Assembly: GCA_034670305.1 (NCBI GenBank)
Contig: JAXMNT010000001.1
Span: 96,001-160,000 of the forward strand
Direction: 5' to 3'
Source of the DNA: Deltaproteobacteria bacterium
GTDB taxonomy: Bacteria; Myxococcota_A; Polyangia; Polyangiales; Houyiibacteriaceae
Length of the DNA stretch: 64,000 nt
The notes under the pieces are model-generated. The model worked only from the letters and a program-made list of their open reading frames with translations. It was not told where the DNA came from and searched no databases. The position numbers and the translations under genes were made by a program. Shown here one piece after another: positions 1 through 22,366 of the stretch. The stretch's first letter is position 1, and every line of letters begins with the position of its first letter.

Positions 1-34
1 CTCGCCCAGCGCCTGCGAGTCAGGCGGCTCCGGC

Positions 35-185
35 CGTGCACCTGCGCAGGCCGAAGGCCGAGCAACTGGTGCACTCCCCAAGTGCGTCGTAGAGGTGGCA
101 GGAGTGCATCGACCGCGCGCAGCCGCCAAGTGCCCCGGATGAATCTTCAGTGATGGCCACACCAGGCGGCGAGCACGTCGATGTG
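35..185 (-). repeat. Dispersed structured element (module Z), copy A
   Basis: Reverse complement shares blocks with 50145-50299: 46/47 nt (35-81 vs 50253-50299), 16/16 (114-129 vs 50203-50218) and 15/15 (164-178 vs 50152-50166), with divergent spacers between blocks. Confidence 0.85.
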
Positions 186-202
186 CTCTGGACGCCGAAT
201 TA

Positions 203-236
203 GGGCCGCCAGTCTCGCGAAGCGAGCCAGGCCCGT
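203..236 (-). repeat. REP-like palindromic module X (ACGGGCCTGGCTCGCTTCGCGAGACTGGCGGCCC)
   Basis: Identical 34-mer at 50020-50053 and 33/33 at 50325-50357; hairpin core CTCGC-TTC-GCGAG. Confidence 0.85.
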
Positions 237-248
237 AGTGCCAATTAA

Positions 249-2075
249 CTAAGAACAGCAGGGGGCGGGAATCAGGAAGGGCAGGCAGTTCGGCAGGCCG
301 TCGTCGGTGACGGTGGTGGCCGAGCCGCGGATGCCGAGGCCGCCTTCGAGGCTGGCCTCCGGACAGAGGGGCACGCCGCACAGATGTTGAACCGGTCCGC
401 AACAACTCGCGCGGGCGGCTTCCGCTTCTTCGCCGTATTCGGAGAAGTCCCGGAACTCGATGTCCCGAATGCCCATGATCGCCGGGTCCGGCGCCTGGTC
501 GCAGCCACTGCGCCCGTCGGTGCGACCGACCGGGCCGCCCGGGTTCGGGTCCTGCACCACGAAGAGCGACGCGTTGCCCTGCTCCGCGACTGGGTCGTCG
601 ATTTGGCTCGGATCTCCGAGCGGGTTCGGCACGGTCCAGGCCTGACCAGAGAAGGTCCCTCCGGCGAGATCGCCACCGGTGCTCGAGAGCGCGGCGGGCA
701 CTTGGCAGCGGCCATCGAGGCAGGTCGTGCCTCCGGTGCATTCCATGCCCATGTCGGTGCAGGCCACGAGTCCGCCGCCGACCGGCGCGCCGCCAGCGAC
801 GCCGTGCAACACGTTGATGCCGTAGAGGCCGGCCGGAAGTTCCTGGCAGCTCACGGTGCTCGACTCATAGAACACCGTCGGGTTGCCCGGCGGGATGACC
901 GGGATCTGGCAGCGGTCGTCCGCGCCGTTGGTCAGCATCACGGCCACGGGCGGGATCACCATCTCGATGTCCGGGTACCAGACGCGCTGCAGCAGTGTCG
1001 TCGTCACCCGAACGCTCGGAATGAGCAGGATGCGGGGCACGCCCGTCACGGTCTCCGCTTCGGAGCGGATGCGCTCCATGAGCATGATCGGGGTGAGCCA
1101 TCCGATGCCCTGCGCGCCGAGGATCGGGTGTGGGTCCTGGGCGCCGTCCCGGTTCGCGTCCACTTCTCGGACGTACCAGGCGTAGGAGAACGGGTTCGCG
1201 GTGTCGACGGAGAGCCCGCCCTGGCCCATGGCGGTGAGCAGCGCCGCGGTCTGAGGGTCGTCGGGGTTGCGGTCGTAGAGCACGAGCCTCGTGGGGGCGC
1301 CTTCGAAGAGTTGGCGTTCGGCTTCGACCGTGTCGGTGGTCGTCGGCAGCGTGCCCTCGGAAGACAGGGGCGTGGTCTCGATCTGGAAGATCGGGCGCTC
1401 GGTGGAGACGGGGAGTCCAAGCGTGACGGAGATGCCGCCGACCAGTTCGCCATCCGGACGCTCTTCGATGGCGCCAAAGTCGATCGGGAGAAAGCGGGTG
1501 ATCGGGGCGGTCGGATCCAGAATCGCGCCGCCGGCGATGTCGCCTGCGGTCGGGAGGTTGGAGACGCTGAAGAACGGATTGAAGTCCTCGTCGTAGTCGT
1601 AGAAACCGCGGATCTGATACTGCACCGGGCCGCCGACGCCGAGCGGCAACTCGGGCCAGGTGAACTCGGTCGACCGCGTGACGACCACGCGGCGCTCTTC
1701 GGGCGTCGGATCCTCGGGCATGCAGTCGTCGAGCGACGTGAACAGAAGCGAGCCGGGCACGGTGAGCAGGTTGAGCGCGGAGGTCGCGCCGCCTTCGGGT
1801 GCGGGCGGGTTGGCGTGGTTGAAGAGCGTGAGGACGACTCGGCCGATGACCCGTCCTTCTTCGCGGTCGCACTGGGGACGCGGACCGGCGTAGAGCACGG
1901 TGCCTTCGATGACGCCGGTGGGATCGGGGGAGGTGCCGCCCATGCTGCGGAAGTCGTCGGTGTCCGGGTCCCCGCATCCGGCCGCGCCTGCGAGCACCAA
2001 GCCGAGGAGCGATGCCGCCAGTGGGGCAACGCGAAGGGAGGCTCGAATGAAGGTATTGGAACTGTGCTGTTTCAT
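249..2075 (-). CDS. Cys-rich hypothetical lipoprotein
   Basis: Lipoprotein-type signal (LVLAGAAGC), about 17 Cys, DANRDG Ca-binding-like motif; starts 8 nt after the stop of a TonB receptor gene. Confidence 0.8.
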   Translation of the reverse strand: MKQHSSNTFIRASLRVAPLAASLLGLVLAGAAGCGDPDTDDFRSMGGTSPDPTGVIEGTVLYAGPRPQCDREEGRVIGRVVLTLFNHANPPAPEGGATSALNLLTVPGSLLFTSLDDCMPEDPTPEERRVVVTRSTEFTWPELPLGVGGPVQYQIRGFYDYDEDFNPFFSVSNLPTAGDIAGGAILDPTAPITRFLPIDFGAIEERPDGELVGGISVTLGLPVSTERPIFQIETTPLSSEGTLPTTTDTVEAERQLFEGAPTRLVLYDRNPDDPQTAALLTAMGQGGLSVDTANPFSYAWYVREVDANRDGAQDPHPILGAQGIGWLTPIMLMERIRSEAETVTGVPRILLIPSVRVTTTLLQRVWYPDIEMVIPPVAVMLTNGADDRCQIPVIPPGNPTVFYESSTVSCQELPAGLYGINVLHGVAGGAPVGGGLVACTDMGMECTGGTTCLDGRCQVPAALSSTGGDLAGGTFSGQAWTVPNPLGDPSQIDDPVAEQGNASLFVVQDPNPGGPVGRTDGRSGCDQAPDPAIMGIRDIEFRDFSEYGEEAEAARASCCGPVQHLCGVPLCPEASLEGGLGIRGSATTVTDDGLPNCLPFLIPAPCCS

Positions 2076-2083
2076 GTCGTGCC

Positions 2084-4726
2084 CTACTGGAAGTGGTAGC
2101 CCACCGTGGCCAGGACCCGCGTGCTCAGACGTTGAGCGTAGGGGTGCTGCCGAATCTTGTTGTTCGTGAGGTTGAAGACGCTCAGACCGAGCTCGACTCG
2201 GTCGTTCGCGATCCGCGTGCCGATGCGCGCGTTGATGAGGTAGTTCGCGGGCAGCTCGAACTCGGTGAACCGCACCCCTTCGATGGCGTCGAACTCCTGC
2301 TCGAGCCAGACCTGCGCACCGGCCCAGTGAAAGTCGACGCCGATGTCGAGCCCGAACGGTGCGCGGTACTGCACGCCGAGGTTGAACTTGTGCCGGCTCG
2401 TGCGTTCTTCGGAGCTGCGCAGCTGGCTGTTGGTCAGGAAGGTCTTGTTGAACGCGTAGTTCGCGTAGATGTCGAGACCGGTGACCGGGTAGATCCGGGT
2501 GGCGATCTCACCGCCCACGACATCGAACTCCGCCGGGTCGTTGGAGAACGTGATGGTGCCGAGGTCGTAGCTCGCGGTGCCCGGGTCGTAGCCGCCGCGG
2601 CCCGCGCCGAAGTCGCCGAGCGTGAACGGGGAGACCTGCGAGAGGATCACGAGATCGGTCACGTGGTTGTAGTAGGCGCTGAGCTCCGCATCGAAGTACT
2701 CGCTCTCCGCGAACCGGTAGCCGAACTCGGCGCTGAGGATGCTCTCGGGTTTCAGCCTCGGCGCATCGAGCAGGTTCGCGGCCGGCTCCGAGCCGAGCGC
2801 CGTGACACCGACACCGGCGAGCGGGGTCGGGTTGTTGAGGTTGATGTAGCTCTCGAGGAACGTCTGCGTCCGGAACGCGGTGCCGACCGACGCTCGGATC
2901 GACTGGCCTTCGGTGGGGCGCACGACCACGGCGCCACGCGGCGAGAAGACCGGGCCGTCGAGCAACGGGTGGAAGTCGAGCCGGAAGCTGCCGACGATGT
3001 GGAGCTTGTCGAAGATCGAGAGGGTGTCCTGGAAGAACACCGCGCCGTGGTTCTCGAACCGCTCTTGGTCGAGGTAGTCCCAGTCGATCTGCTTGCGCCG
3101 GTAGGACGCGCCGAGGTGCAGGTTGTGATCCACGAGGAAGTGGAACTCGCGCGCGAGCTCACCCTCGATGTCGTAGGTGTTCCACTCGAACCGCGCGTGG
3201 AGCGCGTCTCCGCCGCGCGCGGGCGCGGGCAAACCGACCACCGACGCGACCCGGTTCCAGAACATGCGAAGCGAACCCCAGCTGGTCGTCAGACCCGCCA
3301 TCGCGTGGGAGGTCGGGCCACTCGCGAGGAAGTCCCGCAGCGGGCCGGTGCCCTGGAAGTTCTGGGTGTTCTGGTTGAAGCCCGCCTGGGCGTAGGCTTC
3401 GACTTCAGGCGTGAGTCGGTACCGAAGCCCGCCGTTCAGATGCACGCCTTCGAGCGCGAGGTTCCGGTCCCGTGGGAACGTGAAGGTGTGGTCGACGCGG
3501 TCGTCGTCGACTTCGCGGGTGAATCGGTCTTGCCGGTTGTAGCCGGCCGCGACCCGGTAGCCGAGTCGGTCGACGCGCCCACTCGTGGACACGTGTCCGT
3601 GGATGCGCCCGCCGTTGCCGCCGCCGAGCACGACGTCGGTGCGGGGTTCGCCTGGCGCCCGGGTGATGATGTTGATGATGCCGCTGAATGCATCCGCGCC
3701 GTAGAGTGCGGACGCGGGTCCTCGAACCACTTCGATGCGTTCGACGTCTTCGGGGTTGAACGGAAGGATGGACCAGAGCGTGGCGCCGAGCGGATCGATG
3801 TAGACCGAGCGGCCATCGATGAGCACCAGGGTCCGCGGCGAGAGGCGCTGGTTGAACCCGCGGAAGCTGATCGACACGTCCGCCGGCGTCAGCGTCATGA
3901 CGTCGGCGCCCGGCACGCGCCGGATCAGTTCGCCGAGGTTGGTGTGACCCGAGAGCCGGATGTCCTGCCGGGTGATGTTGGTGGTCGCGTTGGGTGCGTC
4001 GAGCGGGCTCTGCGCAAAGCGCGAGGCGGACACGACCTGCTCTTCGTAGATGTCTTCTTCACGCTCTGCACCGAGTTCGAGCGCCGGCTCTTCTCCGATC
4101 TCGGGGGTGGTGTCGGGCGGGGCCTCGCCCACCTGCGTGACCTGAACCGGGGTGCTGCCGCCCTCCCGCAAGGTGCGGGCGACCTCGCGCAATCGGGTGG
4201 CCCGTTCTCGGAGCGAGTCGCTCTGGGTGGCCTCGGCGAGCGTCTCGATCTGGTTCGCGGACTCTTCGAGTGCGGCGATCTCCTCGGCGGTGGCGAGAGC
4301 CTCGATGGGCGGCGCGACCTCTGGTGTCACGGCCGGCGGCGGCGTCTCGGTCTGCTGGGTGGTCTCCACCCGCGCTTCGACCGCACGGATGATGTCCTGC
4401 ACTTCTTCTCGGTCGGGCGGGTCGCTCGCGAGGTAGCGCTCGAAGTACTCGAGCGCGTTCTCGTACTGCTGCGCATCGGCGTAGGCGCGCGCGATGTTGT
4501 ACAGGACGTTCGGGTGGGGGAGCGTTTCGTACGCGACTTGGAGCTCGGCGATGCCCTCGTCGAGCGAGCCGTCCTGGATGAGCTGCATGCCGTGTCGAAA
4601 GTGTCGGCGCGCTTCGGTCCGGACATCGGCCTGAGCGACCGAGCCACCGAGCGCGGCGAACAACAGGCCGAGCAGGAGTGTGGTGCGGGCGCGGGAAGGG
4701 GCGCGGCGTTTGGGGAGGTGTCGCAT
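2084..4726 (-). CDS. TonB-dependent receptor with N-terminal TPR domain
   Basis: Signal peptide; TPR (ARRHFRHGM...PNVLYNIARAY); plug motifs VVSASR, LVLIDGR, ERIEVVRGPASALYGADAFSGIINIIT; barrel end FNLTN...VGYHFQ. Confidence 0.93.
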   Translation of the reverse strand: MRHLPKRRAPSRARTTLLLGLLFAALGGSVAQADVRTEARRHFRHGMQLIQDGSLDEGIAELQVAYETLPHPNVLYNIARAYADAQQYENALEYFERYLASDPPDREEVQDIIRAVEARVETTQQTETPPPAVTPEVAPPIEALATAEEIAALEESANQIETLAEATQSDSLRERATRLREVARTLREGGSTPVQVTQVGEAPPDTTPEIGEEPALELGAEREEDIYEEQVVSASRFAQSPLDAPNATTNITRQDIRLSGHTNLGELIRRVPGADVMTLTPADVSISFRGFNQRLSPRTLVLIDGRSVYIDPLGATLWSILPFNPEDVERIEVVRGPASALYGADAFSGIINIITRAPGEPRTDVVLGGGNGGRIHGHVSTSGRVDRLGYRVAAGYNRQDRFTREVDDDRVDHTFTFPRDRNLALEGVHLNGGLRYRLTPEVEAYAQAGFNQNTQNFQGTGPLRDFLASGPTSHAMAGLTTSWGSLRMFWNRVASVVGLPAPARGGDALHARFEWNTYDIEGELAREFHFLVDHNLHLGASYRRKQIDWDYLDQERFENHGAVFFQDTLSIFDKLHIVGSFRLDFHPLLDGPVFSPRGAVVVRPTEGQSIRASVGTAFRTQTFLESYINLNNPTPLAGVGVTALGSEPAANLLDAPRLKPESILSAEFGYRFAESEYFDAELSAYYNHVTDLVILSQVSPFTLGDFGAGRGGYDPGTASYDLGTITFSNDPAEFDVVGGEIATRIYPVTGLDIYANYAFNKTFLTNSQLRSSEERTSRHKFNLGVQYRAPFGLDIGVDFHWAGAQVWLEQEFDAIEGVRFTEFELPANYLINARIGTRIANDRVELGLSVFNLTNNKIRQHPYAQRLSTRVLATVGYHFQ

Positions 4727-7422
4727 CAGAACCGGAACGCTCCGCTCACCACGAATCGGGTGTCCATGGGCTGACTCAAGGGGTGCTGCCGGACCTTCTG
4801 GAAGAGCAGGTTCGTGCCGGTGATGCCGATGTCCAGCCGGTCGTCGAAGAGCCGGACACCGACGCGCGCGTTGAGCAGCACGTAGCCGTCGAGGTCGAAC
4901 GCTTCGAACCGGACGCCCGTGCGCGCATCCGTGACCTGTTCGACCCAGACCTGGTCGCTCACGTAGTGAAGGTCGACGTTGAGGTCGAGACCGAAGGGTG
5001 CCCGGTACTGGACGCCCAAGTTGAACTTGTGGGCGCTCGTGCGCTGGTCCTGACCGCGGACCGGATCGTCCTGGAAGTCCGCGTCGTTCAGCGGTTCGGT
5101 CTGGTTGTAGGCGTAGTTCGCGTACAGATCGAGGCCCGTGACCGGGAATGCACGAATGCCGATCTCCCCACCGACTTGGTAGAAGGTCGCGTCCTCGTTG
5201 TTGAACTGGAGGTTGCCGACCGGGAACGCCTGCGCGCCTTCGTCGTAGCCACCTTCGCCGGTGCCGAAGTCGCCGAGGCGGAACGTGTCGACCGAGCTGA
5301 GCTGGATCTCGTCGAAGACGAGGTTGTAGTAGACGTTCGTTTCGAGCGCGAAGTAGTCGGTCGCCTGGTTGGCGTAGCCGAGCTCGATGCTCACGATGCG
5401 CTCCGGGTCGAGGTTCTGGTTGCCCTGGCCGATGGCGGTGACGGCGCGGATCGGGGTGCGGTTCTCGAAGTCCAGGTAGGACTCGACGAACGAAGGCGAG
5501 CGGAACGCGGTGCCGCCCGTGAGTCGAAGCGCGTGTCCATCGACCACGCGCCAGACGAGCGAACCACGCGGCGAGAACTGGATGCCGTCGAGGAGCGGAT
5601 GGCGGTCGATGCGGAAGCTGGCGGTCAGCCGGAGGCGTTCATGGAGCTGAACGGCGTCCTGCAGGTACGCGAAGTAGTGGTGCTCGGTCTGGTCGTCGTT
5701 GAGCCAGTTCCACTTCACGTCCTTGTAGCGGTGCCCGACGCCGACGGCGAAGTTGTGATCGACGCCGAGGTGGAACTGGCGGTTGAAACTCAGCTCGGTG
5801 TCGATGACGTCCTGGTCGACCTGCCCGGTGGTGTCGAGCGCGCCGGGCGGGCGCTCGAAGGTGTCCACGTCCACTTCGAAGTGGTTCCAGTACGACTTGA
5901 GCTGAAGTCCGAAGGGCGTCGTGAGCGAGGCGTGCGTCTGGGAGAAGAACAGGTCCCGCACCGCGGTCTGGCGAAGGCGGCTGATGCCCTGGATCGCACC
6001 GTCGCCGACCGTGACCGACGAGCCCGCGCGCACGACGTAGCCCTCGCCGAGGTTGAGCCGGGTCTCTCCTGAGAACCACGCGTTCTCCAAAGCCTGGTTC
6101 GGCCGATCGTAGATCTCGCTGATGCCGTAGTCGGCGCGGTCCGCGCCCACCAGGTTCACGAACATGTCCGTGCGGTTGTAGCCGGCGGATGCGCGGAACG
6201 AGAAGGGTCCCGCGCGGTGGCTCACCGAGGTCGCGGCGCGTCCGGTGCGCCGGTTGCCACCCGCACCCGTGAGGTACGATTCGCCTTCGCCAGGTGTGCG
6301 CAAGATGATGTTCACGATGCCGCTGAACGCGTCGGCGCCGTAGACGGCCGCGGCCGGTCCACGAATGACCTCGATCCGCTCCACGTCCTCGACCGCGAAC
6401 GGCAGCATCTGCACGTAGGGGGACGCGAGGAAGTCGAGACGGACCGTGCGGCCGTCCACCAAGAAGAGCACCTTGTTCGCCTGTCGCCGGTTGAGCCCGC
6501 GGATGCCGACGTCGGTGTGGCCGGGGTAGTGCGTCATCACGTCGACGCCCGCGACGCGCCGGAGCAGCTGCGAGATGTCGGTGATGCCGCTCAGGCGGAT
6601 GTCCTGGCGCGTGATGGTGTGGGTCGAGTTCGGTGCGTCGAGCGGTGACTCCGCGAATCGCGACGCCGAGACCACCTCTTCTTCGAAGACTTCGCGCCGT
6701 TCTTCGCCGAGCGCGAGCTGCGGCTCGGAACCTTCCCCCGTCTCGGTGCCTTCGCCTGTGCCTTCGCTCGTGCCTTCGCCTGTGCCTTCCCCAGTGCCCT
6801 CACCCGTCTCGGTGCCCTCACCCGTCCCGCTGCCTTCGGCTTGCGCGCGGGCTTCGGTGCGGGTTCGAAGGTTGGCGGCCAAGACGCGCAGTCGGCGGGC
6901 CCGCTCGCGAAGCGAATCGCTCTGGGTTGCTTCGGCCAGGGTCTCGATCTGGGTCGCCGACTCTTCGATCGCGAGAATCTCCTGAGTCGAGACGGAGCTC
7001 TCGGGCGGCGGTGGCTCCACCGGCGTCGGCGCCTCGGTGACCTGCGGCTCCCGTGCGGCGAGCCGCGACTGCAACGCATCGAGGAGCGACTGCACCTCCT
7101 CGCGGTCGGGCGGGTCCGACGCGAGGTACTGCTCGAAGTAGTCGACCGCCTCCTCGTACTGATCCGACTCCGCATACGCGCGGGCTATGTTGTAGAGCAC
7201 GTTCGGGTGCGGAAGGATCTCGTAGGCGACTTCGAGCTCGCGAATGCCCTCGGCCGTTTCCCCCCGTTGGATCAGATCCATGCCGTGGCGAAAGTGGCGG
7301 CGCGCTTCGGTGCGCACGTCGGCGAACGCGGTGCTGGCACCGAAGAGGGTGCCGAGCAGAAGCAGCGCAGCGCAGCCATGCGACCAGCGTGCGCGCCAAG
7401 GGTGGGGATCGGGAACTCTCAT
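4726..7422 (-). CDS. TonB-dependent receptor with N-terminal TPR domain (paralogue)
   Basis: Same TPR N-terminus; GTGE-repeat linker; ERIEVIRGPAAAVYGADAFSGIVNII; C-terminal Phe. Confidence 0.93.
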   Translation of the reverse strand: MRVPDPHPWRARWSHGCAALLLLGTLFGASTAFADVRTEARRHFRHGMDLIQRGETAEGIRELEVAYEILPHPNVLYNIARAYAESDQYEEAVDYFEQYLASDPPDREEVQSLLDALQSRLAAREPQVTEAPTPVEPPPPESSVSTQEILAIEESATQIETLAEATQSDSLRERARRLRVLAANLRTRTEARAQAEGSGTGEGTETGEGTGEGTGEGTSEGTGEGTETGEGSEPQLALGEERREVFEEEVVSASRFAESPLDAPNSTHTITRQDIRLSGITDISQLLRRVAGVDVMTHYPGHTDVGIRGLNRRQANKVLFLVDGRTVRLDFLASPYVQMLPFAVEDVERIEVIRGPAAAVYGADAFSGIVNIILRTPGEGESYLTGAGGNRRTGRAATSVSHRAGPFSFRASAGYNRTDMFVNLVGADRADYGISEIYDRPNQALENAWFSGETRLNLGEGYVVRAGSSVTVGDGAIQGISRLRQTAVRDLFFSQTHASLTTPFGLQLKSYWNHFEVDVDTFERPPGALDTTGQVDQDVIDTELSFNRQFHLGVDHNFAVGVGHRYKDVKWNWLNDDQTEHHYFAYLQDAVQLHERLRLTASFRIDRHPLLDGIQFSPRGSLVWRVVDGHALRLTGGTAFRSPSFVESYLDFENRTPIRAVTAIGQGNQNLDPERIVSIELGYANQATDYFALETNVYYNLVFDEIQLSSVDTFRLGDFGTGEGGYDEGAQAFPVGNLQFNNEDATFYQVGGEIGIRAFPVTGLDLYANYAYNQTEPLNDADFQDDPVRGQDQRTSAHKFNLGVQYRAPFGLDLNVDLHYVSDQVWVEQVTDARTGVRFEAFDLDGYVLLNARVGVRLFDDRLDIGITGTNLLFQKVRQHPLSQPMDTRFVVSGAFRF

Positions 7423-9104
7423 CAGTACGGCTCTGCCTTGTATCCCTTGATGCCGACGGAAGCACCTCCGGACATCATCGTCACCATGCCCATGGGCGTT
7501 CGCGGCCGCGGCGGACGTCGGATCATGACCGAGGGTTCGGGGGTGGCTTCATCCAGCTCCGCGGTCACCGCGAGCGCGTCGGTGATGATGGTGCGGGTGA
7601 CCGTGAAGTCCCGATGTCCTTCCAGCTGGAACTGGAAGGTGATCTCACGGCCCGGTGCAGCGTCCGCGCCCGTCCACTCCACGTCGGCGGGCGTGGGCCC
7701 ATAGGTTCGTTCGCCGACCTGGACGAGCGCGCCCGACGGCTCGGAGCGAAGCGAGACGAGCACCCGCGCCACCGCGGGCTCCACCGGGCCCGGATCTTGG
7801 ATCGGATCTTGGGTCGGGTTCTGGCCGACCTCCTGGCCCGTTGCCGGCGGCACCGTGGCGATGGGCGGAGATGGACTGCGCAGCGCGATGTATCCCCCGA
7901 TGAGTCCCGCCACGAGGAGCGCGCCGCCGATGAACAGAAGCGCCCGACCTCTCTGAGAGGTGTCTTCGGGTTCGCCGAGCCGGTGATCGGGGAACGAGAT
8001 CGGCGGCGCCATGGCGTCGGAGGACGAGGGGCTCGAGGCGGGCGCACCCGTCGGCAACCCGAGCTGTGGTGTGCCGGTGACCTCGACGCTTCCAAAGCTG
8101 CCGGTGGAGCCGCCGCCGAGGGCGAACTCGCGGCTCAACGCGCTCTCCCCACTGCGGGAGACGCCGAGTCCGGTCTCGGCCGCGGTGTGCTTCAGCTCGA
8201 CCAGGAACGCGTCCATCGTGTCGAAGCGTTCCGCGGGATCCTTCGCCATCGCTTTGAGCACGACCTGCTCGAGGCGGGGATCGAAGATGGCGCCCGGTGC
8301 GGTCTCCGCCATCGTCGGAGGCTGCTCGTGCACGTGCGCCATGAGGATGTTGACCGAGTTGGGCCGGTCGAACGGCACCTTGCCGGTGAGCATCTGATAC
8401 AGGATCACGCCAAGCGCGTAGATGTCGCATCGGTGGTCGACGTGTTCGCCCCGAATCTGTTCGGGCGACATGTACTTGGGCGACCCCATGAACAGACCGG
8501 TCTGGGTCAGGTCTTCGCTCTTCTCGGCGAGGTCCTTCACCAGCCCGAAATCGAGCACTTTGACAAAGTCTTGTTCGTCGCCGTGTTTGACCAGAAAGAT
8601 GTTCGCTGGCTTCAGGTCGCGGTGAACCACGCCGAGCGCATGTGCTTCGCGCAGCGAGCGGCACATCTGGCGGGCGATGTGCATCGCGCGGTCGGGTTCC
8701 AGCCGTCCGTTCTCACGGAGGGCGCGGTGGAGCGTCTTGCCCTCGAGCAGCTCCATCGCGATGTAGTAGACGTCGTCGTCGGTCCGGCCGTAGTCGAAGA
8801 TCGTGACGGTGTTCGGGTGCGTGAGCTTCGCGCAGATCGACGCTTCCAGGAAAAAGCGTTTGTGGAACTCGGGGTCTTGGTCCCCGTGGTAGTTCGGGTT
8901 GAGGATCTTCAGCGCGACCTCACGGCCGAGCGGCGCCTGTTCGGCGCGGTAGACCTTGCCCATCCCCCCACGCGCGATGAGACCCGTGATGCGGAACCGG
9001 TCGTTGATCACCCGTCCGATGAGCGGATCGGGACCGCCCCGCTTCGGCGGATCTTTCACCGGTTGTTCGGGCGCAGGTGCCCCGTCCGCGTTGCTCGTCT
9101 CCAC
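7422..9104 (-). CDS. Membrane-anchored Ser/Thr protein kinase with periplasmic PEGA-like domain
   Basis: [29 protein letters not shown] motifs; TM helix LLFIGGALLVAGLIGGYIAL; SEPSGALVQVG; start re-chosen at GTG near 9104 because the ORF-track extension overlaps the divergent gene. Confidence 0.92.
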   Translation of the reverse strand: METSNADGAPAPEQPVKDPPKRGGPDPLIGRVINDRFRITGLIARGGMGKVYRAEQAPLGREVALKILNPNYHGDQDPEFHKRFFLEASICAKLTHPNTVTIFDYGRTDDDVYYIAMELLEGKTLHRALRENGRLEPDRAMHIARQMCRSLREAHALGVVHRDLKPANIFLVKHGDEQDFVKVLDFGLVKDLAEKSEDLTQTGLFMGSPKYMSPEQIRGEHVDHRCDIYALGVILYQMLTGKVPFDRPNSVNILMAHVHEQPPTMAETAPGAIFDPRLEQVVLKAMAKDPAERFDTMDAFLVELKHTAAETGLGVSRSGESALSREFALGGGSTGSFGSVEVTGTPQLGLPTGAPASSPSSSDAMAPPISFPDHRLGEPEDTSQRGRALLFIGGALLVAGLIGGYIALRSPSPPIATVPPATGQEVGQNPTQDPIQDPGPVEPAVARVLVSLRSEPSGALVQVGERTYGPTPADVEWTGADAAPGREITFQFQLEGHRDFTVTRTIITDALAVTAELDEATPEPSVMIRRPPRPRTPMGMVTMMSGGASVGIKGYKAEPY

Positions 9105-9219: not shown

Positions 9220-11370
9220 ATGCCGTACCCTCGGCGCATGCGCGCTTGGTGGAGGTCGTCCGGGGCACAAACCGCCACAGCTTGGGTGATCGGGGCCCTG
9301 AGCGTGCTGACTGTGGCGTTGTCGTTGCCGAGTCCCGGTGCCGCGCAACCCTCGTGGCTTGCGCGCACCCGCCTCGCGGAGCTGCGTTCTGAGCTGCAGT
9401 CGTCGTCGCTTGTGCTGCGGGAGCGCGCGGCCCGCCGGTTGGCGACCGAAGGCAGCGACGCGGGGGCGCGCCGTGTCTTGCTCGACGCGCTCACCCTCGA
9501 GCGTTCTTCCCGGGTACGCGTCGCGATCGCGCGGGCGCTCTCGTGGCGGGCCCACCCATCGATCGCGATGGGACTCATCGAAGCCCTCGACGCGTCGGGC
9601 GGGGCGGATGCCCGAGACCTGGCCCTGGCGCTCGCGACCGTCGACACGCCGGCGTCGCGCATCGCACTCGTCGATGCGCTCGGCCGCGACGACCTGCAAG
9701 CGGCGGCCCACGAGGCGCTGCTCGTCCTCGGGCCTTCGGTTGCACCGACCCTGGCCGGTCGATTGAGAGAAGACCCGACCCACATTCCCGCCATCGCGCT
9801 GCTCGGGGCGATGCGAGACGTCGGTTCGGTGCCTCTGCTGGATCGATTGGCCGCGTCGCCGGCGGTGCCGGTGCGCCGCGCTGCGCTCACTGCCCTCGCC
9901 GCCATCGGGGATGTCCGCGCGCGCCCCACCTTCCTTGCGCACGTCGACGATCCGGACGCGAGCATCGCGCTCGTCGCCACCGACGCGTTGCTCGGGCTCG
10001 CGACGGCGGCGGATGTGCCGAGGCTCGAGACCTGGTTGCCGGACGCGGTCGATGTTCGCCGCCGCCGGGTGCTCGAAGCGCTGCTTCATGCGGATGCGAC
10101 ACGCGCCGCGGCGATCCTGGCGGCCGAGGTGGGCTCCGCGGATCCCGACCGGGTGCTGATCGCGGGTGGAGTGGCCATCGACCACCCGCAGGTCGCGCTG
10201 TTGCCGGTGCTCTATGGCCTCTACGAAGAAGGCACCCGCCGCGCGGAAGCCGCTTCGGCGTTGGCGGAAGTCGACGGAGGCGCGGGCATCGGGGTGCTGC
10301 TGCGGGAGACGGTGCAGGCCGAAGACGGGTCCGAACATGCCCGCCGCGGCCTCGCGGTGGCGCTGCGCCGTTGGGGGGAACGTCTCAGTGTGCGCGTCCG
10401 GCGCCAGAGCATCGCGGCGTTGCAGGCGGGGGCGCTCGACGGACCGGCCGCCGCCCAGACGGTGACACTGCGCGCGCTCGCCCGAGATCGCAGTGTCCTG
10501 CCGCGGATCCGGGAGAACCTGGCCGCGGACGATCCCTCCGCGCGGGGATGGGCGGCTCAAGCCGCGGGCCTGCTTGGCGACGAGGACGTCGTGGACACGC
10601 TCGTCGAGGCGCTCGTCGAGGAAGCGGATCCGTCCGCCTTCCGTCAGATGGCGCTCGCCCTCTCCACCCTGCCCACCTCGGCCACCTCTGCCCACGCCCA
10701 TCGACTCTGGGCCGCTGCCTTGCCGGCATTCGCGGATCCCAGCCGCGTGGCGGAAGTGGCCCTGCTGGCTGCGAGTCTCGAGTTGGACGCGAGGGATCGG
10801 CGGCGCCGCGGGGTGCTGCTGCGCCGGCTTCTTCGACATGCGAGCGAGCGGGTTCGGTCCTCGGCGGCGTGGGCGCTTGGTCGGGCGGGGGAGACCAGCG
10901 CGTGGCGGGCGCTGCTCGATCGCGTCGACGTGGACGACTCGCTCACGGTGCGCCGCGCGGCTGCACGTGCGCTCGCGGTGTTGCGCAGCGGCGTGGTCCA
11001 GCACACCGTCGACGCCACGGCCGAAGGCTCGGAGAGCGGCACCGCCGCACGCCTCGCGCCCTTTGCGGACGACGATCCGAATGCGGAATGGGTGACGGAG
11101 ACCATCGACCGCCGTGGGCGCGGGGAGCGGGACGACACCGTCCGTGGGTTCATCCGGCGCGCCGGGCGCGGCATCCACACCCCAGCGGTCCTGGGAGGCG
11201 CGGAGGTGCTTCGCCTGCGGGTGGTGTCGGCGGCCGCGGCGGGTGGGGTCGAGATCGAGGTCCAGCACGCGGACGGCCGATGGGTTCGGACCCAGACCCT
11301 CCCGACCGGGGAGTACTTCCTGGCCGACCTACCGTCGCAGACGCTGGATGTCCGCGTGGTCGTGCAGTGA
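9220..11370 (+). CDS. HEAT/PBS-lyase-like repeat protein, probably secreted
   Basis: Repeated VRRAALTAL, VRSSAAWALG, VRRAAARAL units; hydrophobic N-terminus; start may be 9238. Confidence 0.8.
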   Translation: MPYPRRMRAWWRSSGAQTATAWVIGALSVLTVALSLPSPGAAQPSWLARTRLAELRSELQSSSLVLRERAARRLATEGSDAGARRVLLDALTLERSSRVRVAIARALSWRAHPSIAMGLIEALDASGGADARDLALALATVDTPASRIALVDALGRDDLQAAAHEALLVLGPSVAPTLAGRLREDPTHIPAIALLGAMRDVGSVPLLDRLAASPAVPVRRAALTALAAIGDVRARPTFLAHVDDPDASIALVATDALLGLATAADVPRLETWLPDAVDVRRRRVLEALLHADATRAAAILAAEVGSADPDRVLIAGGVAIDHPQVALLPVLYGLYEEGTRRAEAASALAEVDGGAGIGVLLRETVQAEDGSEHARRGLAVALRRWGERLSVRVRRQSIAALQAGALDGPAAAQTVTLRALARDRSVLPRIRENLAADDPSARGWAAQAAGLLGDEDVVDTLVEALVEEADPSAFRQMALALSTLPTSATSAHAHRLWAAALPAFADPSRVAEVALLAASLELDARDRRRRGVLLRRLLRHASERVRSSAAWALGRAGETSAWRALLDRVDVDDSLTVRRAAARALAVLRSGVVQHTVDATAEGSESGTAARLAPFADDDPNAEWVTETIDRRGRGERDDTVRGFIRRAGRGIHTPAVLGGAEVLRLRVVSAAAAGGVEIEVQHADGRWVRTQTLPTGEYFLADLPSQTLDVRVVVQ

Positions 11371-14497: not shown

Positions 14498-16834
14498 CTA
14501 CTGCAGATAGCCGAGCGCGCGCAGCTGCGCCGCGGTCTCGTCGTCGATGACGGTGCGCTCCGGGCGGTGGCGCCTCCGGCCCGGCTCGACTTCACCGCGG
14601 GTCTCTTGCAGCCGCAGCCCGAGCAGACCGCGCAGCCACCGGACCGTGAGCGGGTGGGTGTCTGCCAGGTCCTGTGCTTCGCCTGGGTCCTCCTGGAGGT
14701 CGTACAAGCGCGAGCGGTTGCGTGGGCGCTGCACGAGCTTCCATCGACCGACCGTGACCGTGCGCCAGTTCTCCATGAACCCGCTGACGGTCGCACGCGG
14801 TGCGTCGCCCGGCTCCCCACGCAACTCGCTGAGGAAGCTGCGTCCGGAGAGGTTCGGAGGCGCCTCCACCTCGAGCGCCTCGAGAATGGTCGGCATGACG
14901 TCGACCAGCCCCACCGGCGTCTCGATGCGGCGGGGTGCCTCGCCCGGAATGCGCACGAAGAGCGGCACGTGCAGCAGCTCCTCGTACACGCTGTGCCCGT
15001 GTCCGACCGATCCGTGGTCCCAGAATTCTTCGCCGTGATCCGAGGTCAGCAGCACCATCGTGTCGTCGGCGAGTCCGCGGCTCTCGAGTCCTTCCAAGAT
15101 CGCTCGGAAGTGCACGTCGTGGTAGCTGATCTCGCCGTCGTAGAGCGCTTCGAGGAACGCACGGTCGCGGGGGGTGGCGCGCAGTCGACCGAGTTTGATC
15201 TCTTCGAGGACCTGCGCGGTGCGTCCTGCCTGGATCGGTCCGTTGTAGTCCCCGCCGCCGTACATCTCGAGGAACGACTGCGGCGGCCGGTAGGGCACGT
15301 GCGGATCGATGGTGTGCACGTACAGGAAGAAGGGATCCTCCGCGTGGTCCTCTTGATGGGTGTCGAGCCAGGCCAGCACATCGGCCGCCACGAACTCCGC
15401 CTTGGTCCGGCGTCCTTCACGAATGTAGTTGCGGTAGGTGTCCCATCCCTGACGGAACCCGAACCGGTCGGAGACGAACCCGTTGCAGATGAACGAGCCG
15501 GTCCGGAAGCCGCTGTCCTGCAGCACCTCCGGCAACATCGTGACCGAGTTCGGCAACACCGAGCCGTCGAGCGTCGCGGAATGTTCCCAAGGCATGAGCG
15601 ACGTCAGAAGCGTGGCGACACTCGGCTTGGTCCAGTTCTCTTGCGAGTGCGCGTGCACGAACGTGGTCGCGCCGCGCGCGAAGGCCGAGAGGCCTGGCGT
15701 CTGCACCCGCGTGTCTGCGGCGTAGGGTTCGAGTCGATCCGCGCGCAACGTGTCTACGAGGATCAACAGAACGTTCTTCGGCTTCGCGAGCGTTCGCGAC
15801 TCTGGGGCCGGCACGTGCACGGCGACCTGGTGCAAGCGCAGATCGTCGCGGGCCTCGATCTCGAGCCGCACCACCGCGTCCGTCTCCGTGGCGAGGTCGA
15901 GGTCGAGCTCCCCGCGCACCAACACTTCTCGAGCCGCGCCGCCCTCTCTGCGCAAGCGCACCGTGGCCTCGCCGTCCACGAATCCGCGCAAGCGCGCGCT
16001 GGCTGGGACCTCGAGTGTCCACGCGAGCTGCCACCCCGCGTCCACCGCGACCGCTCGGCTCTCCTGCACCAAGGTCTCTCGCGGCGCCCGGCCTGCGGGC
16101 GCCGGTGCGTTCGGACCGATCCGCATCGACTTCAGCAGGAGCCCGACCCGGCCGATGCCCTCGACGGATCCAGAACGCGCCGCGCGCACGAGCAACTCGT
16201 TCTCGCCCTCGACCACCAAGGTCTCGGGCACCTCGACCGCGATCGTGCCGAAGCCTTCGCGGGGCAGCGCCGCGTCGCCGACGAACTCCCCGTTGAGGTA
16301 CAGCCGCGTGCGTCCGCCGCCTGGCGTCGATCCCACCAGTTCGATGTGCAGCTCCGCCGAGGCCGCGTGGAACTGCAACCGGCCCTGCCGACCCTCCGTC
16401 GCGAGCGCCGCGCCGCCGTCCACCTCGACCCGCCGGGAGGACGTGCTCCATCCGCCGAGCGTGTACTGCGCGGAGGACGCTTGCCCGAAGTCGACCACGC
16501 GGGTGGTGCCCTGCCAGACCTCCGCCCGCTCCATGTGGTCGAGCAAACCGAAATGGGTGCGGGTCGGCGGCGGGGGTGGCTCGGGCGGGGCCTCTGCAAC
16601 CGGCGCTGCTTCGGGCGTGGGCGCGACCGCAGGCGTCGGCGTCGGCGTGGGTTCGAGCTGGGCCGACGGCCCTTGCGAGCCGCTGCATCCGAGCGCTGCG
16701 GCGCCCCACATGACCCCGAGGCAGAGCACCCGCCAGTGCGGCCGTACGGTTCCAGGTCGCGGGGGTTGTCGTTGCGGTTGGGTCGGATCGGGGCGGCGGG
16801 TCGTTTCGTGGGCAGAGGTCACGCGGCCGAACAT
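14498..16834 (-). CDS. Sulfatase/alkaline-phosphatase superfamily lipoprotein
   Basis: NVLLILVDTLRAD, WTKPSVATLLTS, TSDHGEEF, GHGHSVYEELLHVPL, LYDLQEDPGE, QLRALGY; AALGC lipobox; true start probably downstream. Confidence 0.88.
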   Translation of the reverse strand: MFGRVTSAHETTRRPDPTQPQRQPPRPGTVRPHWRVLCLGVMWGAAALGCSGSQGPSAQLEPTPTPTPAVAPTPEAAPVAEAPPEPPPPPTRTHFGLLDHMERAEVWQGTTRVVDFGQASSAQYTLGGWSTSSRRVEVDGGAALATEGRQGRLQFHAASAELHIELVGSTPGGGRTRLYLNGEFVGDAALPREGFGTIAVEVPETLVVEGENELLVRAARSGSVEGIGRVGLLLKSMRIGPNAPAPAGRAPRETLVQESRAVAVDAGWQLAWTLEVPASARLRGFVDGEATVRLRREGGAAREVLVRGELDLDLATETDAVVRLEIEARDDLRLHQVAVHVPAPESRTLAKPKNVLLILVDTLRADRLEPYAADTRVQTPGLSAFARGATTFVHAHSQENWTKPSVATLLTSLMPWEHSATLDGSVLPNSVTMLPEVLQDSGFRTGSFICNGFVSDRFGFRQGWDTYRNYIREGRRTKAEFVAADVLAWLDTHQEDHAEDPFFLYVHTIDPHVPYRPPQSFLEMYGGGDYNGPIQAGRTAQVLEEIKLGRLRATPRDRAFLEALYDGEISYHDVHFRAILEGLESRGLADDTMVLLTSDHGEEFWDHGSVGHGHSVYEELLHVPLFVRIPGEAPRRIETPVGLVDVMPTILEALEVEAPPNLSGRSFLSELRGEPGDAPRATVSGFMENWRTVTVGRWKLVQRPRNRSRLYDLQEDPGEAQDLADTHPLTVRWLRGLLGLRLQETRGEVEPGRRRHRPERTVIDDETAAQLRALGYLQ

Positions 16835-16959
16835 AGCCCCGACGGCCGGATCCGGCGGAAAAGTGGTCGTCCGCAGTTGATTGGAGGGGAAGCGGAACGT
16901 TCTGTTATGGTCCGCGTGAATCGATGTTCGCGCGGAACGTCCTTCCTCCCACCAGGCCC

Positions 16960-17292
16960 ATGTCCTTCACCACGCTGCTCCAGCAGGCACTCCGAATCGT
17001 GCTCGTGTCCGCCACGCTCCTCGCCTCGACGGTGGCGTTCGCCGACGCGCTCGTGCACGTTCAGGTCCGCAATCCATCGAACGAACCCGTCGATGGCAGC
17101 GTGACGTTGCGGCCCCGTGCCGGCGGAGACCAGACCTACCGCTGCCAGACCGAAGGCGGCGACTGCGACATCCACGGGGTGCCGCCGGGCTTGTACACGG
17201 TCACCTTCGCGCCGCCCTCGGGCGAAGCCACCCCGCCGCGCAACGTGGTCGTGCCCGAAGGTCGCGTCACGCTCCGAGTCGCCGCCCAGTAG
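16960..17292 (+). CDS. Secreted carboxypeptidase-regulatory-like domain protein
   Basis: Signal peptide ending AFA; GVPPGLYTVTF motif. Confidence 0.7.
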   Translation: MSFTTLLQQALRIVLVSATLLASTVAFADALVHVQVRNPSNEPVDGSVTLRPRAGGDQTYRCQTEGGDCDIHGVPPGLYTVTFAPPSGEATPPRNVVVPEGRVTLRVAAQ

Positions 17293-18774: not shown

Positions 18775-19086
18775 CCTCAGCAGATGGATCGTCGAGCGTC
18801 GAACCACGACTGCACACTCCGCAAGCTGCACCGCACGTGCTGAATGCGGGGACCTGTGCTGGGCACCTTATGTGCAGAGTGCGCCGATTGAACCGATTAA
18901 CTGCGCCAGGGCGTGCCCTCAGCGGCCTGGCGTGCCATCCCGACACGCTTGTGTCTCGGGAGGCCCGCGAGAGACCAGCAACATCGTCGGTCCCCCGCAC
19001 CCAGCGGGAACCATGGACCTTTTTGGCGACTCGTTGTAGAAAGCGCCCCAACGCGGCCCGATCCCTCCGGACCGCAGGAGAACCGA

Positions 19087-21408
19087 ATGCGAGCCCAACT
19101 TCACCGCCTTGGCATCCTTCGCCTCGCCCTCCACATGCTCTGCGGCGTGTCGTTGGCCTTCGCCTCGTTTGGCGTGTCCTCGACCGCGGACGCACAGTTC
19201 GACGACGAGTTCGACGACGAGTTCGAAGAAGAAGAGACGCCACCCCCGACCACGACCACCACCGCCTCGGACGACGCGTTCGATGGCGACGATGAGTTCG
19301 ACGACGGCTTCGAGGAGGATCTCGAAGACGCCAACTCCGAGTCGGGCACGGGCGACGTGGCTGATGAAGACGAGGAAGAGGAAGACGAAGACGAGGACGA
19401 GGACGAGGACGAAGAACTCGAAGCCCGCCTCTTCCGCGCGCAGAACACCTGGTTCGGTGCCGCGGGTGGTCTTCACATCCTCGACGCCGGCGGCGGCGCG
19501 GTCGGAACGTTCCGCATCCAGCTCGCGACGGAGTTCTTCTTCGCGTCCGACTTCATCAACGTCGGCGACGACGCGGACCACATCGGTGGCGCCCTCTCGC
19601 TCGGTTGGACCGTGCACGAGAACGTCGAACTCTGGGCGAGCGTGCAGTCCTACGCGAACAGCAACAGCACCGGCGACCCCACGCTCTTTCAGGTGCTCGG
19701 CGACGCGCAGCTCGGTGTGAAGGCCTTCGGCCGCGTGCTTCCGTTCCTGACGGTTGGCGGCGACTTCACGCTTCAGCTCCTCAACACGGTCGGCGACATC
19801 GGCGTGGTCTTCAAGAGCACGAGCTTCGGCCTGCGCGCCAACATGACCCTCGACCTTCGTGGTCTCGACAACCCCGTCCCGTTCGTCGCGCGCTTCAACT
19901 TTCAGTACTACTTCGACAACAGCAACAAGCTGGTCGGAGACGTCGAGGACGCCCGCTACGCCAACCTCGAAGACCCGGCGGGCCCGGCGTCCTGCGAAGG
20001 CCTCGAACCCGGCGCGCCGTGTGAACACCGGCACCTCATCAACACCGTCGAGCGCTTCGGCCTCAACATCAACCGGACCGACTTCTTCAACATCGGCATC
20101 GGGCTCGAGAGCCCGCTTCGAGTCGGAACCGACTTCCACCTCAGCCCGCTCGTCGAGTGGCGCATGGCCATCCCGGTCAACCGCCAGGGCTTCGTCTGTC
20201 TCATCACGGACGACGGCGGCGACGAGTGCCTCGACCAGGCCGGCGTCTCCGCCTTCCCGATGGACCTGACGCTCGGTGTGCGTGTCCTGCCGCCTGTCGA
20301 TGGTCTGAGCATCTTGCTCGCCGCCGACATCGGACTCACTGGCAAGTCGACGTTCGTTCGCGAGCTCTCGCCGAACGCGCCCTACAACCTCTACCTCGCG
20401 CTCGCCTACGCCTACGACCCCTCGCCTGAAGTTCAGGCCGAGCCGGAAGTGCGCGAAGTCGAACGCCGCGTCGAAGTGCAGCTTCCCCCGCCGCTCCAGG
20501 GCCGCATCCGCGGCGAAGTGGTCGAGCAGGGCGCAGGCACCCCGGTGCCGAACGCCGTGGTTCGATTCCCCGGCCGCGACCTGACCGCGCTCGTCGCCGA
20601 CGAGGCCGGTGTCTTCACCAGCTACGCGCTCGACCCTGGCGAAGTGCAGCTCGCACTCAGCCACGACGAGTACAACGACGGCGCCTGCGTCGCGACGATT
20701 CCCGACGAGCGGCCCGAAGAGGGCGAACTCATCGTCCAGGTCCGCTGCGAACTCACCGCGCTTCCGCGCGTGGGTGCGGTCGCCGGTCGTGTGGTCGGCA
20801 GCGACGACGGCAACGGCGTCGCCGGTGCCACCATCGCGCTCACCGGCCCGGCCACCCGCAACCTCACCGCAGGCCCGGATGGCAGCTTCAGCGTCGCCGA
20901 CCTCCCGCCCGGCACCTACACGGCACGGGTCGAAGCCGAGAACTTCCTCATCAAGATGGACACCTTCGAAGTGGTCGCGCGTGAAACCGCGAACTCCACC
21001 ATCACGATCGTGGCCCGTCCGCGCAACGCGCTCGTCCGCCTCCGCGGTCGAGACATCCAGATTCGGCGCAAGATCAACTTCGCGACGAACAGCGCCGACA
21101 TCCTCCCGTCGAGCGACCCGCTCCTCACCGAGATCGCCGACGTGCTGATCCGCAACCCGCAGGTGACCGGCGTCGAGATCCAGGGACACACGGACGACCG
21201 TGGCCCGTCCGCCCGCAACCAGACCCTCTCGGCGGAACGCGCCGAGTCGGTTCGCACCTGGCTCATCGCTCACGGCGTGAACGCCTCGCGTCTGACCGCG
21301 CGCGGCTTCGGTTCGAGCAACCCGCTCGTCCCGAACATCACGCCGAGCAACCGAGCCCGCAACCGCCGCGTCCAGTTCGTCATCACCGCCCAGGCCGAAG
21401 CGCCCTAG
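19087..21408 (+). CDS. OmpA-family outer membrane protein with acidic N-terminus, barrel and carboxypeptidase-like domains
   Basis: AGGAG RBS; signal peptide; C-terminal [32 protein letters not shown]. Confidence 0.9.
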
Positions 21409-22359: not shown

Positions 22360-22366
22360 CCGCGCG

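Follow-up and report, generated by a model that had tools for sequence, protein, structure and literature searches.

Organization of the Locus

The subject of this study is a four-gene cassette in a 64,000-nucleotide stretch of DNA (the window) from a Deltaproteobacteria bacterium assigned to the Houyiibacteriaceae, a family of the Myxococcota. The window corresponds to C1:96001-160000 of a 7.9-Mb genome of about 68% GC in 105 contigs. Positions 249-9104 are filled by four co-directional open reading frames (ORFs), all on the minus strand, and the cassette coordinates given below are window positions on that strand. In the direction of transcription, the genes encode a bitopic Hanks-type Ser/Thr kinase of 560 residues with a GTG start (7422..9104), two TonB-dependent receptors with an N-terminal tetratricopeptide repeat (TPR) extension, receptor 2 (898 residues, 4726..7422) and receptor 1 (880 residues, 2084..4726), and a Cys-rich lipoprotein of 608 residues (249..2075). 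An initial annotation, made from the sequence alone, had proposed four co-directional genes at these positions, and the ORF calls agree.

The kinase gene is joined to that of receptor 2, and receptor 2 to receptor 1, by TGATG stop/start overlaps at 7422 and 4726, respectively, and the ATG of the lipoprotein lies 8 nt past the receptor 1 stop. Both overlaps and the 8-nt gap, which had been pointed out previously, are legible in the sequence. The codon-position GC of all four ORFs is as expected for real genes. The kinase frame can be extended to 9980; upstream of 9104, however, its codon-position GC is non-coding-like (0.61/0.74/0.81 vs. 0.69/0.47/0.84 inside the gene). A promoter scan for operon boundaries returned no promoter-like site, and a terminator scan returned three terminator-like sites, all on the plus strand and not above shuffled sequences. 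A profile search found 41 Sigma70_r2 matches in the genome, none of them within C1:96001-160000, which bears out the earlier statement that the window encodes no extracytoplasmic function (ECF) sigma/anti-sigma pair.

The Receptors and Their N-Terminal Extension

Both receptors contain a Plug domain (PF07715, 80 and 74.8 bits vs. a cut-off of 23.9) and a TonB_dep_Rec_b-barrel domain (PF00593, 96.7 and 100.4 bits vs. a cut-off of 27), and both terminate in F. The Plug and barrel span residues 261-369 and 442-872 of receptor 2 and residues 242-350 and 387-853 of receptor 1. By domain content, the two proteins are TonB-dependent transporters. Neither came close to the cut-off of any named receptor family in NCBIfam, where the nearest models were siderophore, B12 and haem receptors, and the public annotation of the receptor is merely "TonB-dependent receptor".

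The region ahead of the barrel matched TPR_19 in both proteins (25.6 and 33 bits vs. a cut-off of 25; residues 45-115 of receptor 2 and 46-112 of receptor 1). No STN domain was among the Pfam matches of either receptor (taken at E<=0.01), the extension being a TPR. The signal peptides end in AQA or AFA directly before the sequence DVRTEARRHF. In receptor 2, the predicted periplasmic TPR module (residues 35-125, 7048..7320), which is conserved phylum-wide as ARRHF...PHP..LYNIAR.Y, precedes a conserved amphipathic helix (residues 146-190, 6853..6987) with an equivalent in distant homologues. The TonB-box-like EEEVVSASR follows (residues 247-255, 6658..6684), immediately before the Plug. The TPR module of receptor 1 (residues 34-124, 4355..4627) is 68% identical to that of receptor 2, and its conserved helix was read from the translation at about residues 144-187 (4166..4297). 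The helix common to both receptors has the sequence EESA(N/T)QIETLAEATQSDSLRERA, and the TonB-box-like EE(Q/E)VVSASR directly ahead of the Plug, judged by eye, is conserved. The Pfam matches and translations are thus in accord with the initial description of a signal peptide, TPR, shared helix and TonB-box-like EExVVSASR in each receptor.

The same layout was found from the organism's own order out to distant families: signal peptide, two-repeat TPR, linker, amphipathic helix, low-complexity linker and TonB-box-like sequence, with a TPR that opens with (D/E)ARRHF and contains PHP..LYNIAR.Y. When the TPR-helix region was searched by sequence against the PDB, the matches were limited to TPRs of designed or consensus type and to natural TPRs with weak scores. 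In receptor 2 the linker at window positions 6700-6850 consists of Gly/Thr/Glu low-complexity repeats (GTGEGT/GTGTET), and some genomes (loci L070, L072 and L089) carry this type of repeat in both the receptor linker and the periplasmic linker of the kinase. The cultured relative Sandaracinus amylolyticus encodes a receptor of the same family (P0051); the comparison with this organism took in the receptor only.

The two receptors are 50% identical overall, 68% in the TPR and 45% in the plug and barrel. A single receptor is the common state, and the tandem pair is a duplication found in part of the order. The barrels of the tandem copies behave as old paralogues, with an identity of 0.46 for the two copies of one genome, 0.57 for orthologues and 0.45 for cross comparisons. 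In contrast, the TPR segments are 0.85 identical within a genome vs. 0.70 and 0.69 between genomes, and their synonymous sites are also homogenised in four lineages. The TPR homogenisation is, as judged from these identities, episodic gene conversion. In the window itself no clear signal of TPR conversion was seen in the share of identical codons (TPR, 40/65; plug, 38/74). Homogenisation of the TPR fits with both receptors having to match one partner.

The Kinase and Its C-Terminal Motif

Pkinase matched residues 41-298 of the kinase with 172.5 bits (8211..8984), and VALK with K66, H161-R162-D163, N168 and D185-F186-G187 are invariant in 24 orthologues. By its Pkinase domain and catalytic residues, the protein is a Hanks-type Ser/Thr protein kinase, with a catalytic domain predicted to be cytoplasmic. 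The best NCBIfam match was PknB_PASTA_kin (NF033483). An assignment as a PASTA kinase was rejected, since the score of 327.6 bits is below the cut-off of 450, the match (model positions 1-272 of 563) covers the catalytic domain only, and there are no PASTA repeats.

A single transmembrane helix, ALLFIGGALLVAGLIGGYIAL, was read from the translation at residues 388-408 (7881..7943), and this hydrophobic block aligns in the 24 orthologues. Because a single helix follows the cytoplasmic catalytic domain, the C-terminus of the kinase is predicted to be periplasmic. The predicted periplasmic part contains a PEGA-like beta domain at about residues 447-518 (7551..7766). As for the PEGA-like domain proposed earlier, the match of the window kinase itself is partial and below the Pfam cut-off (PF08308, 17.9 bits vs. 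20.8), whereas PEGA was matched in 22 of the 24 orthologues at E<=0.01, the best at 9.5e-6. The protein ends in the motif GYKAEPY (residues 554-560, 7425..7445), which is conserved in orthologues. The transmembrane helix and a tail ending in YKAEPY had both been noted initially and can be read from the translation.

The tail motif, in the form GY[KR]x[DE]PY, was present in 22 of 22 orthologues of the same order, at the extreme C-terminus in 16 and followed by 2-3 residues in 6. In 15 kinases from distant families, the last 6-13 residues always include G-Y-x-x-x-P, as in PEGYKPSPY, PAGYKSNPFD and PEGYMGLPDDFQ. A PEGA-like block is present in only 5 of these 15; in the other 10, the periplasmic part is only a low-complexity Pro/Glu/Lys/Ala spacer of 130-250 residues (with runs such as EPEPEP, PRPRPR and KPTPKPEAKP) and the terminal motif. 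In the aligned proteins, terminal G-Y-x-x-x-P is the sole element of the predicted periplasmic part that is kept across all of the kinases compared.

The strict form of the motif was found in only one ORF of the source genome. A paralogous kinase in the window (56900-58534, minus strand) is 48% identical over residues 23-560 and has a transmembrane helix, a PEGA-like block and the tail ENYRDNPY, a looser version of the motif. Comparable paralogues in two relatives end in GYHDSPY and DYRDNPY.

The Lipoprotein

The protein encoded after receptor 1 has no Pfam or NCBIfam match. A hydrophobic stretch is followed by the lipobox L-A-G-A-A-G-C34, the Cys of which is invariant in 14 orthologues, and by its signal peptide and lipobox the 608-residue protein is a bacterial lipoprotein with predicted lipidation at Cys34. 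The AlphaFold2 model of the full protein (predicted local distance difference test, pLDDT, 72.5) shows an N-terminal beta-sandwich at residues 50-225 (1401..1928), the part that is conserved phylum-wide. The best Foldseek match was 3r4r_B (E 9e-4, TMq 0.14), and the best VIA matches, to the pilotins 2yjl_A and 5wec_B, had a Z of 6.5, which lies in the range of common beta-sandwich matches, and covered residues 51-227 only. When the C-terminal 381 residues were folded alone (pLDDT 72.1), the best VIA match had a Z of 3.4 and Foldseek returned nothing at E<=0.001. A protein atlas search with the lipoprotein gave only sub-0.9 leads, to Myxococcota clusters and CarboxypepD_reg proteins. The earlier suggestion that the lipoprotein is a surface lid found no support in these searches, in which only the N-terminal beta-sandwich gave a weak fold match.

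The C-terminal segment is rich in Cys and His (CCxPxxHLCGxPLC ... CC, 252..404), with invariant or nearly invariant Cys columns. This conserved pattern, at window positions 249-404, possibly represents disulfides or a metal site; it has no family or fold match.

Conservation of the Cassette

A TPR-receptor was found in 22 of 41 related genomes. Receptor and orthologue-level kinase occur together in 20 of the 41 and are both missing from 17; two have only the receptor, both of them fragmented assemblies, and two only the kinase, which in one of the two is without the tail motif. From the genomes with a TPR-receptor, 20 loci were fetched. The kinase orthologue precedes the receptor(s) in 12 of them, with a catalytic domain 68-81% identical to that of the window kinase, and is absent in 5; one further locus is truncated where its contig stops, and the remaining two represent a paralogous pair at a different site. 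A scan anchored on the lipoprotein took in 33 loci. One or two TPR-receptors lie directly before the lipoprotein in all 32 loci with room upstream, and the kinase orthologue is directly upstream of the receptors in 22 of the 29 assessable loci and absent in 7 (4 were not assessable), the same-order orthologues being 65-82% identical in the catalytic domain. The seven loci without the kinase have unrelated genes upstream (gyrB and genes for an M32 carboxypeptidase, an FHA/T2SSE protein and a SpoU methylase), and three of these genomes encode the kinase, including the tail motif, elsewhere. In six loci from more distant families of the order, the kinase, receptor and a homologue of the lipoprotein N-domain follow one another in that order in every case.

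Beyond the order, receptor homologues were present in 51 of 301 sampled Myxococcota genomes, concentrated in certain families, and 18 loci were fetched from families outside the order. Of the 17 loci that could be assessed, 15 have the kinase directly upstream on the same strand, at a spacing that ranges from -8 to +274 nt and is often an overlap. In one of the two other cases, the receptor is an additional copy, and the kinase accompanies the first copy of that genome. The catalytic domains are 41-50% identical, and the receptors only 30-36%. Furthermore, in 15 of the 18 loci a lipobox protein of 350-430 residues starts -11 to +41 nt past the receptor stop. Weak tblastn matches to the window lipoprotein were obtained in 7 of the 18, and the N-domain is the only part of it matched in the distant loci.

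The genome contains at least 150 Pkinase matches (about 150-200 genes). Since kinases are only a few percent of the genes and are nevertheless retained beside divergent receptors, the persistence of a kinase neighbour at 30-36% receptor identity argues for function rather than chance, with the reservation that the genomes are related. As judged by gene order, the cassette is kept together across many myxobacterial lineages. The initial annotation had stated that its proposal would fall if homologous TPR-receptors were not linked to kinases in other genomes; instead, linkage was found in 22 of 29, 6 of 6 and 15 of 17 loci.

A second, divergent pair was found beside groESL in two genomes of one genus (L056:3888-8260 and L057:6676-11023, in G022 and G011). 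The kinase of this pair, with 36% identity, terminates in PEGA and lacks the GY motif. Its receptor keeps the TPR without the conserved helix, and no lipoprotein follows.

TPR-Kinase Pairs Elsewhere in the Genome

Within the genome, the receptor TPR finds its best matches in small secreted proteins. Among 23 matches resembling the TPR of receptor 2, two of which fall in one protein, 12 lie within 3 kb of a Pkinase match, compared with 2.8 +/- 1.6 for random placement, and none of 2000 draws reached 12. In the kinases near these matches, a transmembrane helix is often combined with PEGA and with a short, aromatic tail at the C-terminus. In 4 of 8 TPR paralogues tested, the TPR is directly fused to PEGA (29-72 bits). 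By these matches, periplasmic TPR and PEGA, which the cassette distributes over receptor and kinase, can also be parts of a single protein.

Pairs in which a membrane Ser/Thr kinase is followed by a small secreted TPR protein were seen at C9:17351-21652, C32:42458-46110, C43:26213-28713, C5:153786-157272 and C14:23928-27950. The TPR proteins of these pairs are often fused to PEGA and end in ..G.F. A recurrent triad of kinase, TPR protein and Cys-rich lipoprotein was also considered and was rejected; the neighbouring Cys-rich proteins have no significant BLASTP similarity to the lipoprotein, and two of the ORFs look to be in the wrong frame.

Flanking Genes

Upstream of the kinase, a gene for a 716-residue HEAT-repeat protein (9220-11370, plus strand) is divergently transcribed, and a homologue occupies this position in about nine related loci and in none of the distant ones. 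Downstream of the lipoprotein gene, about 2 kb without a convincing gene (G000:C1:94105-96248, including window positions 1-248, with one doubtful small ORF) precede ribF. An Rfam search of this stretch gave no match. In most relatives, ribF is within about 100-200 nt of the lipoprotein gene. The window also encodes an 835-residue protein with CarboxypepD_reg repeats and a C-terminal OmpA domain (18901-21408, plus strand), and a sulfatase (14498-16966) and an M10-like peptidase (22049-23230) are among the envelope or degradative functions encoded close by.

Comparison with Known Systems

In FecA-FecR-FecI, PupB-PupR and FpvA-FpvR, the receptor has an N-terminal periplasmic domain and the adjacent gene encodes a single-pass inner-membrane protein with a periplasmic C-terminal part. 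The cassette receptors likewise have an extra, predicted periplasmic domain before the TonB-box-like sequence and are encoded beside a single-pass inner-membrane protein, and the logic by which occupancy is relayed to the cytoplasm would be the same. However, the receptor extension of the cassette is a TPR and helix rather than STN, and the inner-membrane partner is a Hanks Ser/Thr kinase rather than an anti-sigma factor, with no ECF sigma factor encoded in the window. Moreover, contact in the periplasm would be made by a short peptide at the end of a flexible tether, where the known systems use a folded C-terminal domain, and a lipoprotein is a fixed third component. The cassette would thus work most like FecA-type signalling but lacks what defines it, the STN domain and the anti-sigma/ECF sigma pair. 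Background on TonB-dependent cell-surface signalling can be found in parts of PMC7186176 and PMC11637429.

The cassette kinase resembles PknB, PrkC and StkP in being a bitopic Hanks kinase with an extracytoplasmic C-terminal part. It differs in that the ectodomain is PEGA plus tail, or tail alone, without PASTA repeats, and in that it is linked to an outer-membrane receptor in a diderm. TonB, and TolA, have an N-terminal membrane anchor, a long Pro/Glu/Lys-rich spacer that spans the periplasm and an end element for the outer-membrane receptor. The distant cassette kinases, with Pro/Glu/Lys-rich spacers ending in the motif, recall this arrangement; however, they have no TonB C-terminal domain, only a motif of 6-13 residues, and the cytoplasmic side of the protein is a kinase rather than a short ExbBD-bound tail.

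A lipoprotein gene directly after that of a TonB-dependent receptor, inherited with it, is reminiscent of SusC/SusD and TbpA/TbpB. Nevertheless, the SusC/RagA model TIGR04056 scored only 32.2 and 33.8 bits for the cassette receptors against a cut-off of 368, and the lipoprotein has no family match and no SusD-like or TbpB-like fold match. TPR domains are well known to bind short terminal peptides, as in Hop with the EEVD of Hsp70/90 and PEX5 with PTS1, and the cassette similarly pairs a TPR with a conserved short motif at or near the C-terminus of the putative partner. It differs in that the TPR has only about two repeats and the binding is putative. Furthermore, 1-6 residues follow the motif in 6 of the 22 same-order kinases and in most of the distant ones; therefore, recognition of a free carboxylate would not be required.

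A Model for Trans-Envelope Signalling and Its Alternatives

We propose that the kinase, the TonB-dependent receptor and the lipoprotein form a three-component module that would span the envelope. The inner-membrane kinase would have a cytoplasmic catalytic domain, one transmembrane helix and a long, flexible, proline-rich tether, here carrying PEGA, that ends in G-Y-x-x-x-P(-Y). The TPR-helix extension of the outer-membrane receptor would be carried on a flexible linker before the TonB-box-like sequence, at the position taken by STN in FecA-type transducers, and the lipoprotein encoded right after the receptor would complete the outer-membrane part. The tether would reach the outer-membrane complex, where the terminal motif, PEGA or both may dock on the TPR extension. 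Ligand binding or TonB-driven movement of the plug would then alter the contact between tether and receptor and thereby kinase activity, so that Ser/Thr phosphorylation of cytoplasmic targets would report receptor occupancy. The gene architecture, the domains, the conservation of cassette and motif and the recurrent TPR-kinase pairing in this scheme are observed; how the proteins are placed in the envelope, that they touch, which way the signal runs and what the substrate would be are inferred.

For the module as such, a kinase tether docked on an outer-membrane receptor complex whose state is read as phosphorylation, we put the chances of being right and wrong about equal. Docking of the tail on the TPR is the leading candidate for the contact, and a tentative one. 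Similarly tentative is a more specific and wider joint reading: the G-Y-x-x-x-P motif on a TonB-like tether may plug into the receptor TPR, turning ligand capture directly into phosphorylation, and the cassette may be one case of a general myxobacterial rule that matches every membrane kinase tail with a dedicated TPR protein in the periplasm. Trans-envelope signalling had been suggested in the initial annotation, and that suggestion has gained from the kinase linkage, the conserved and predicted periplasmic tail and the recurrent TPR-kinase pairing; its more particular element, a readout through TPR and tail, is still conjectural. The module is also favoured by the tight packing of the four genes, the co-occurrence of receptor and kinase among the 41 relatives, the restriction of the strict motif to one ORF, the receptor extension kept across the phylum and the homogenised TPR segments. 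The predicted complex of receptor 2 residues 33-192 with kinase residues 440-560 scored 0.18 and 0.15 vs. a mark of 0.32, a result that weighs neither way on binding.

Several observations weigh against the proposed module or its preferred contact. The TPR module is small, about two repeats and a capping helix. The paralogous kinase at 56900-58534 has no TonB-dependent receptor beside it, so that such tails are not exclusive to receptor-linked kinases. The receptor-lipoprotein pair stands without an adjoining kinase in 7 of 29 loci within the order and in 2 of 17 outside it, and the genomes compared are related rather than independent samples. Within the order, moreover, the synteny block also takes in ribF and the HEAT-repeat gene; the block there is wider than the cassette, and part of the linkage may therefore be inherited gene order. 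Finally, the second kinase/TPR-receptor pair beside groESL keeps the TPR and has lost both the tail motif and the lipoprotein, which makes the lipoprotein, rather than the TPR, a possible partner of the motif.

The possibility was therefore considered that the module and its direction of signalling are as proposed and that the motif docks on the N-terminal beta-sandwich of the lipoprotein, which would then face the periplasm. The TPR-helix would then serve to recruit a TonB/ExbD-type partner, to oligomerise the receptor or to hold the lipoprotein. The N-domain is the only part of the lipoprotein kept phylum-wide, and the lipoprotein follows the receptor in 32 of 32 loci with room in the lipoprotein-anchored scan, as does a lipobox protein in 15 of 18 distant ones. 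However, motif and lipoprotein were lost together only once, in one genus, and where such TPR modules lie beside other kinases of the genome, BLASTP finds no nearby Cys-rich protein with significant similarity to the lipoprotein; both the docking site and the other role for the TPR-helix seem to us unlikely. Somewhat less unlikely, while still well short of probable, is an uptake operon in which receptor and lipoprotein import a nutrient and the kinase is coupled indirectly, its ectodomain sensing nutrient or envelope state without touching the receptor and regulating expression or metabolism. Both receptors have a full Plug and barrel and a TonB-box-like sequence, as ordinary transporters do, their nearest NCBIfam models are siderophore, B12 and haem receptors, albeit all far below cut-off, and PEGA ectodomains occur on many kinases without a linked receptor. 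Such an operon would leave the conserved TPR extension unexplained; furthermore, 10 of the 15 distant kinases have only spacer and motif in place of a folded ectodomain, and a ligand-binding sensor is thus not the feature that is conserved.

The cassette might also be a structural or secretory device, an envelope-spanning anchor or a route of export or assembly that the kinase regulates only from inside. Export by a protein resembling TonB-dependent receptors has a precedent in Myxococcus (Oar), and the best, middling fold matches of the lipoprotein N-domain are the secretin pilotins ExsB and AspS. The Z of these matches, 6.5, is one that common beta-sandwiches reach, however, and the cassette encodes no secretion components, which makes this explanation improbable in our view. 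We give least credence, and very little, to an absence of functional coupling, with adjacency being merely the inherited gene order of related genomes. The inclusion of the housekeeping gene ribF and of the HEAT-repeat gene in the same-order block would be expected from such inheritance. In the 18 distant loci, however, neither gene was found, and the wider synteny therefore does not explain the linkage there; adjacency survives at 30-36% receptor identity where these neighbours are gone. In addition, the short gaps (-8 to +274 nt) and frequent overlaps, the conservation of the tail motif along with the linkage, and the occurrence of a paralogous kinase/TPR-receptor pair at a separate locus all argue against this explanation.

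Significance

To our knowledge, every described route from a TonB-dependent receptor to the cytoplasm runs through an anti-sigma/ECF sigma pair. In the cassette, an outer-membrane receptor is probably coupled to protein phosphorylation, an arrangement not yet described. No description of a kinase-linked TPR-TonB receptor was found in the literature searched, supplementary files excepted, and the text of a preprint on an atlas of bacterial Ser/Thr kinases (10.1101/2025.01.12.632604) contains no mention of TonB, PEGA, outer membrane or tetratricopeptide.

Myxobacteria have very large kinomes, the inputs of nearly all such kinases are uncharted, and the cassette gives one kinase family a concrete candidate input. 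The short conserved peptide motif is a handle that can be mutated or synthesised, and the cassette provides a testable model of how a signal might cross the periplasm. Bench tests are made feasible by the cultured relative Sandaracinus amylolyticus with its receptor of the same family. Furthermore, small TPR proteins recur beside kinases, which suggests that docking of this kind may account for many orphan kinases besides the one in the cassette.

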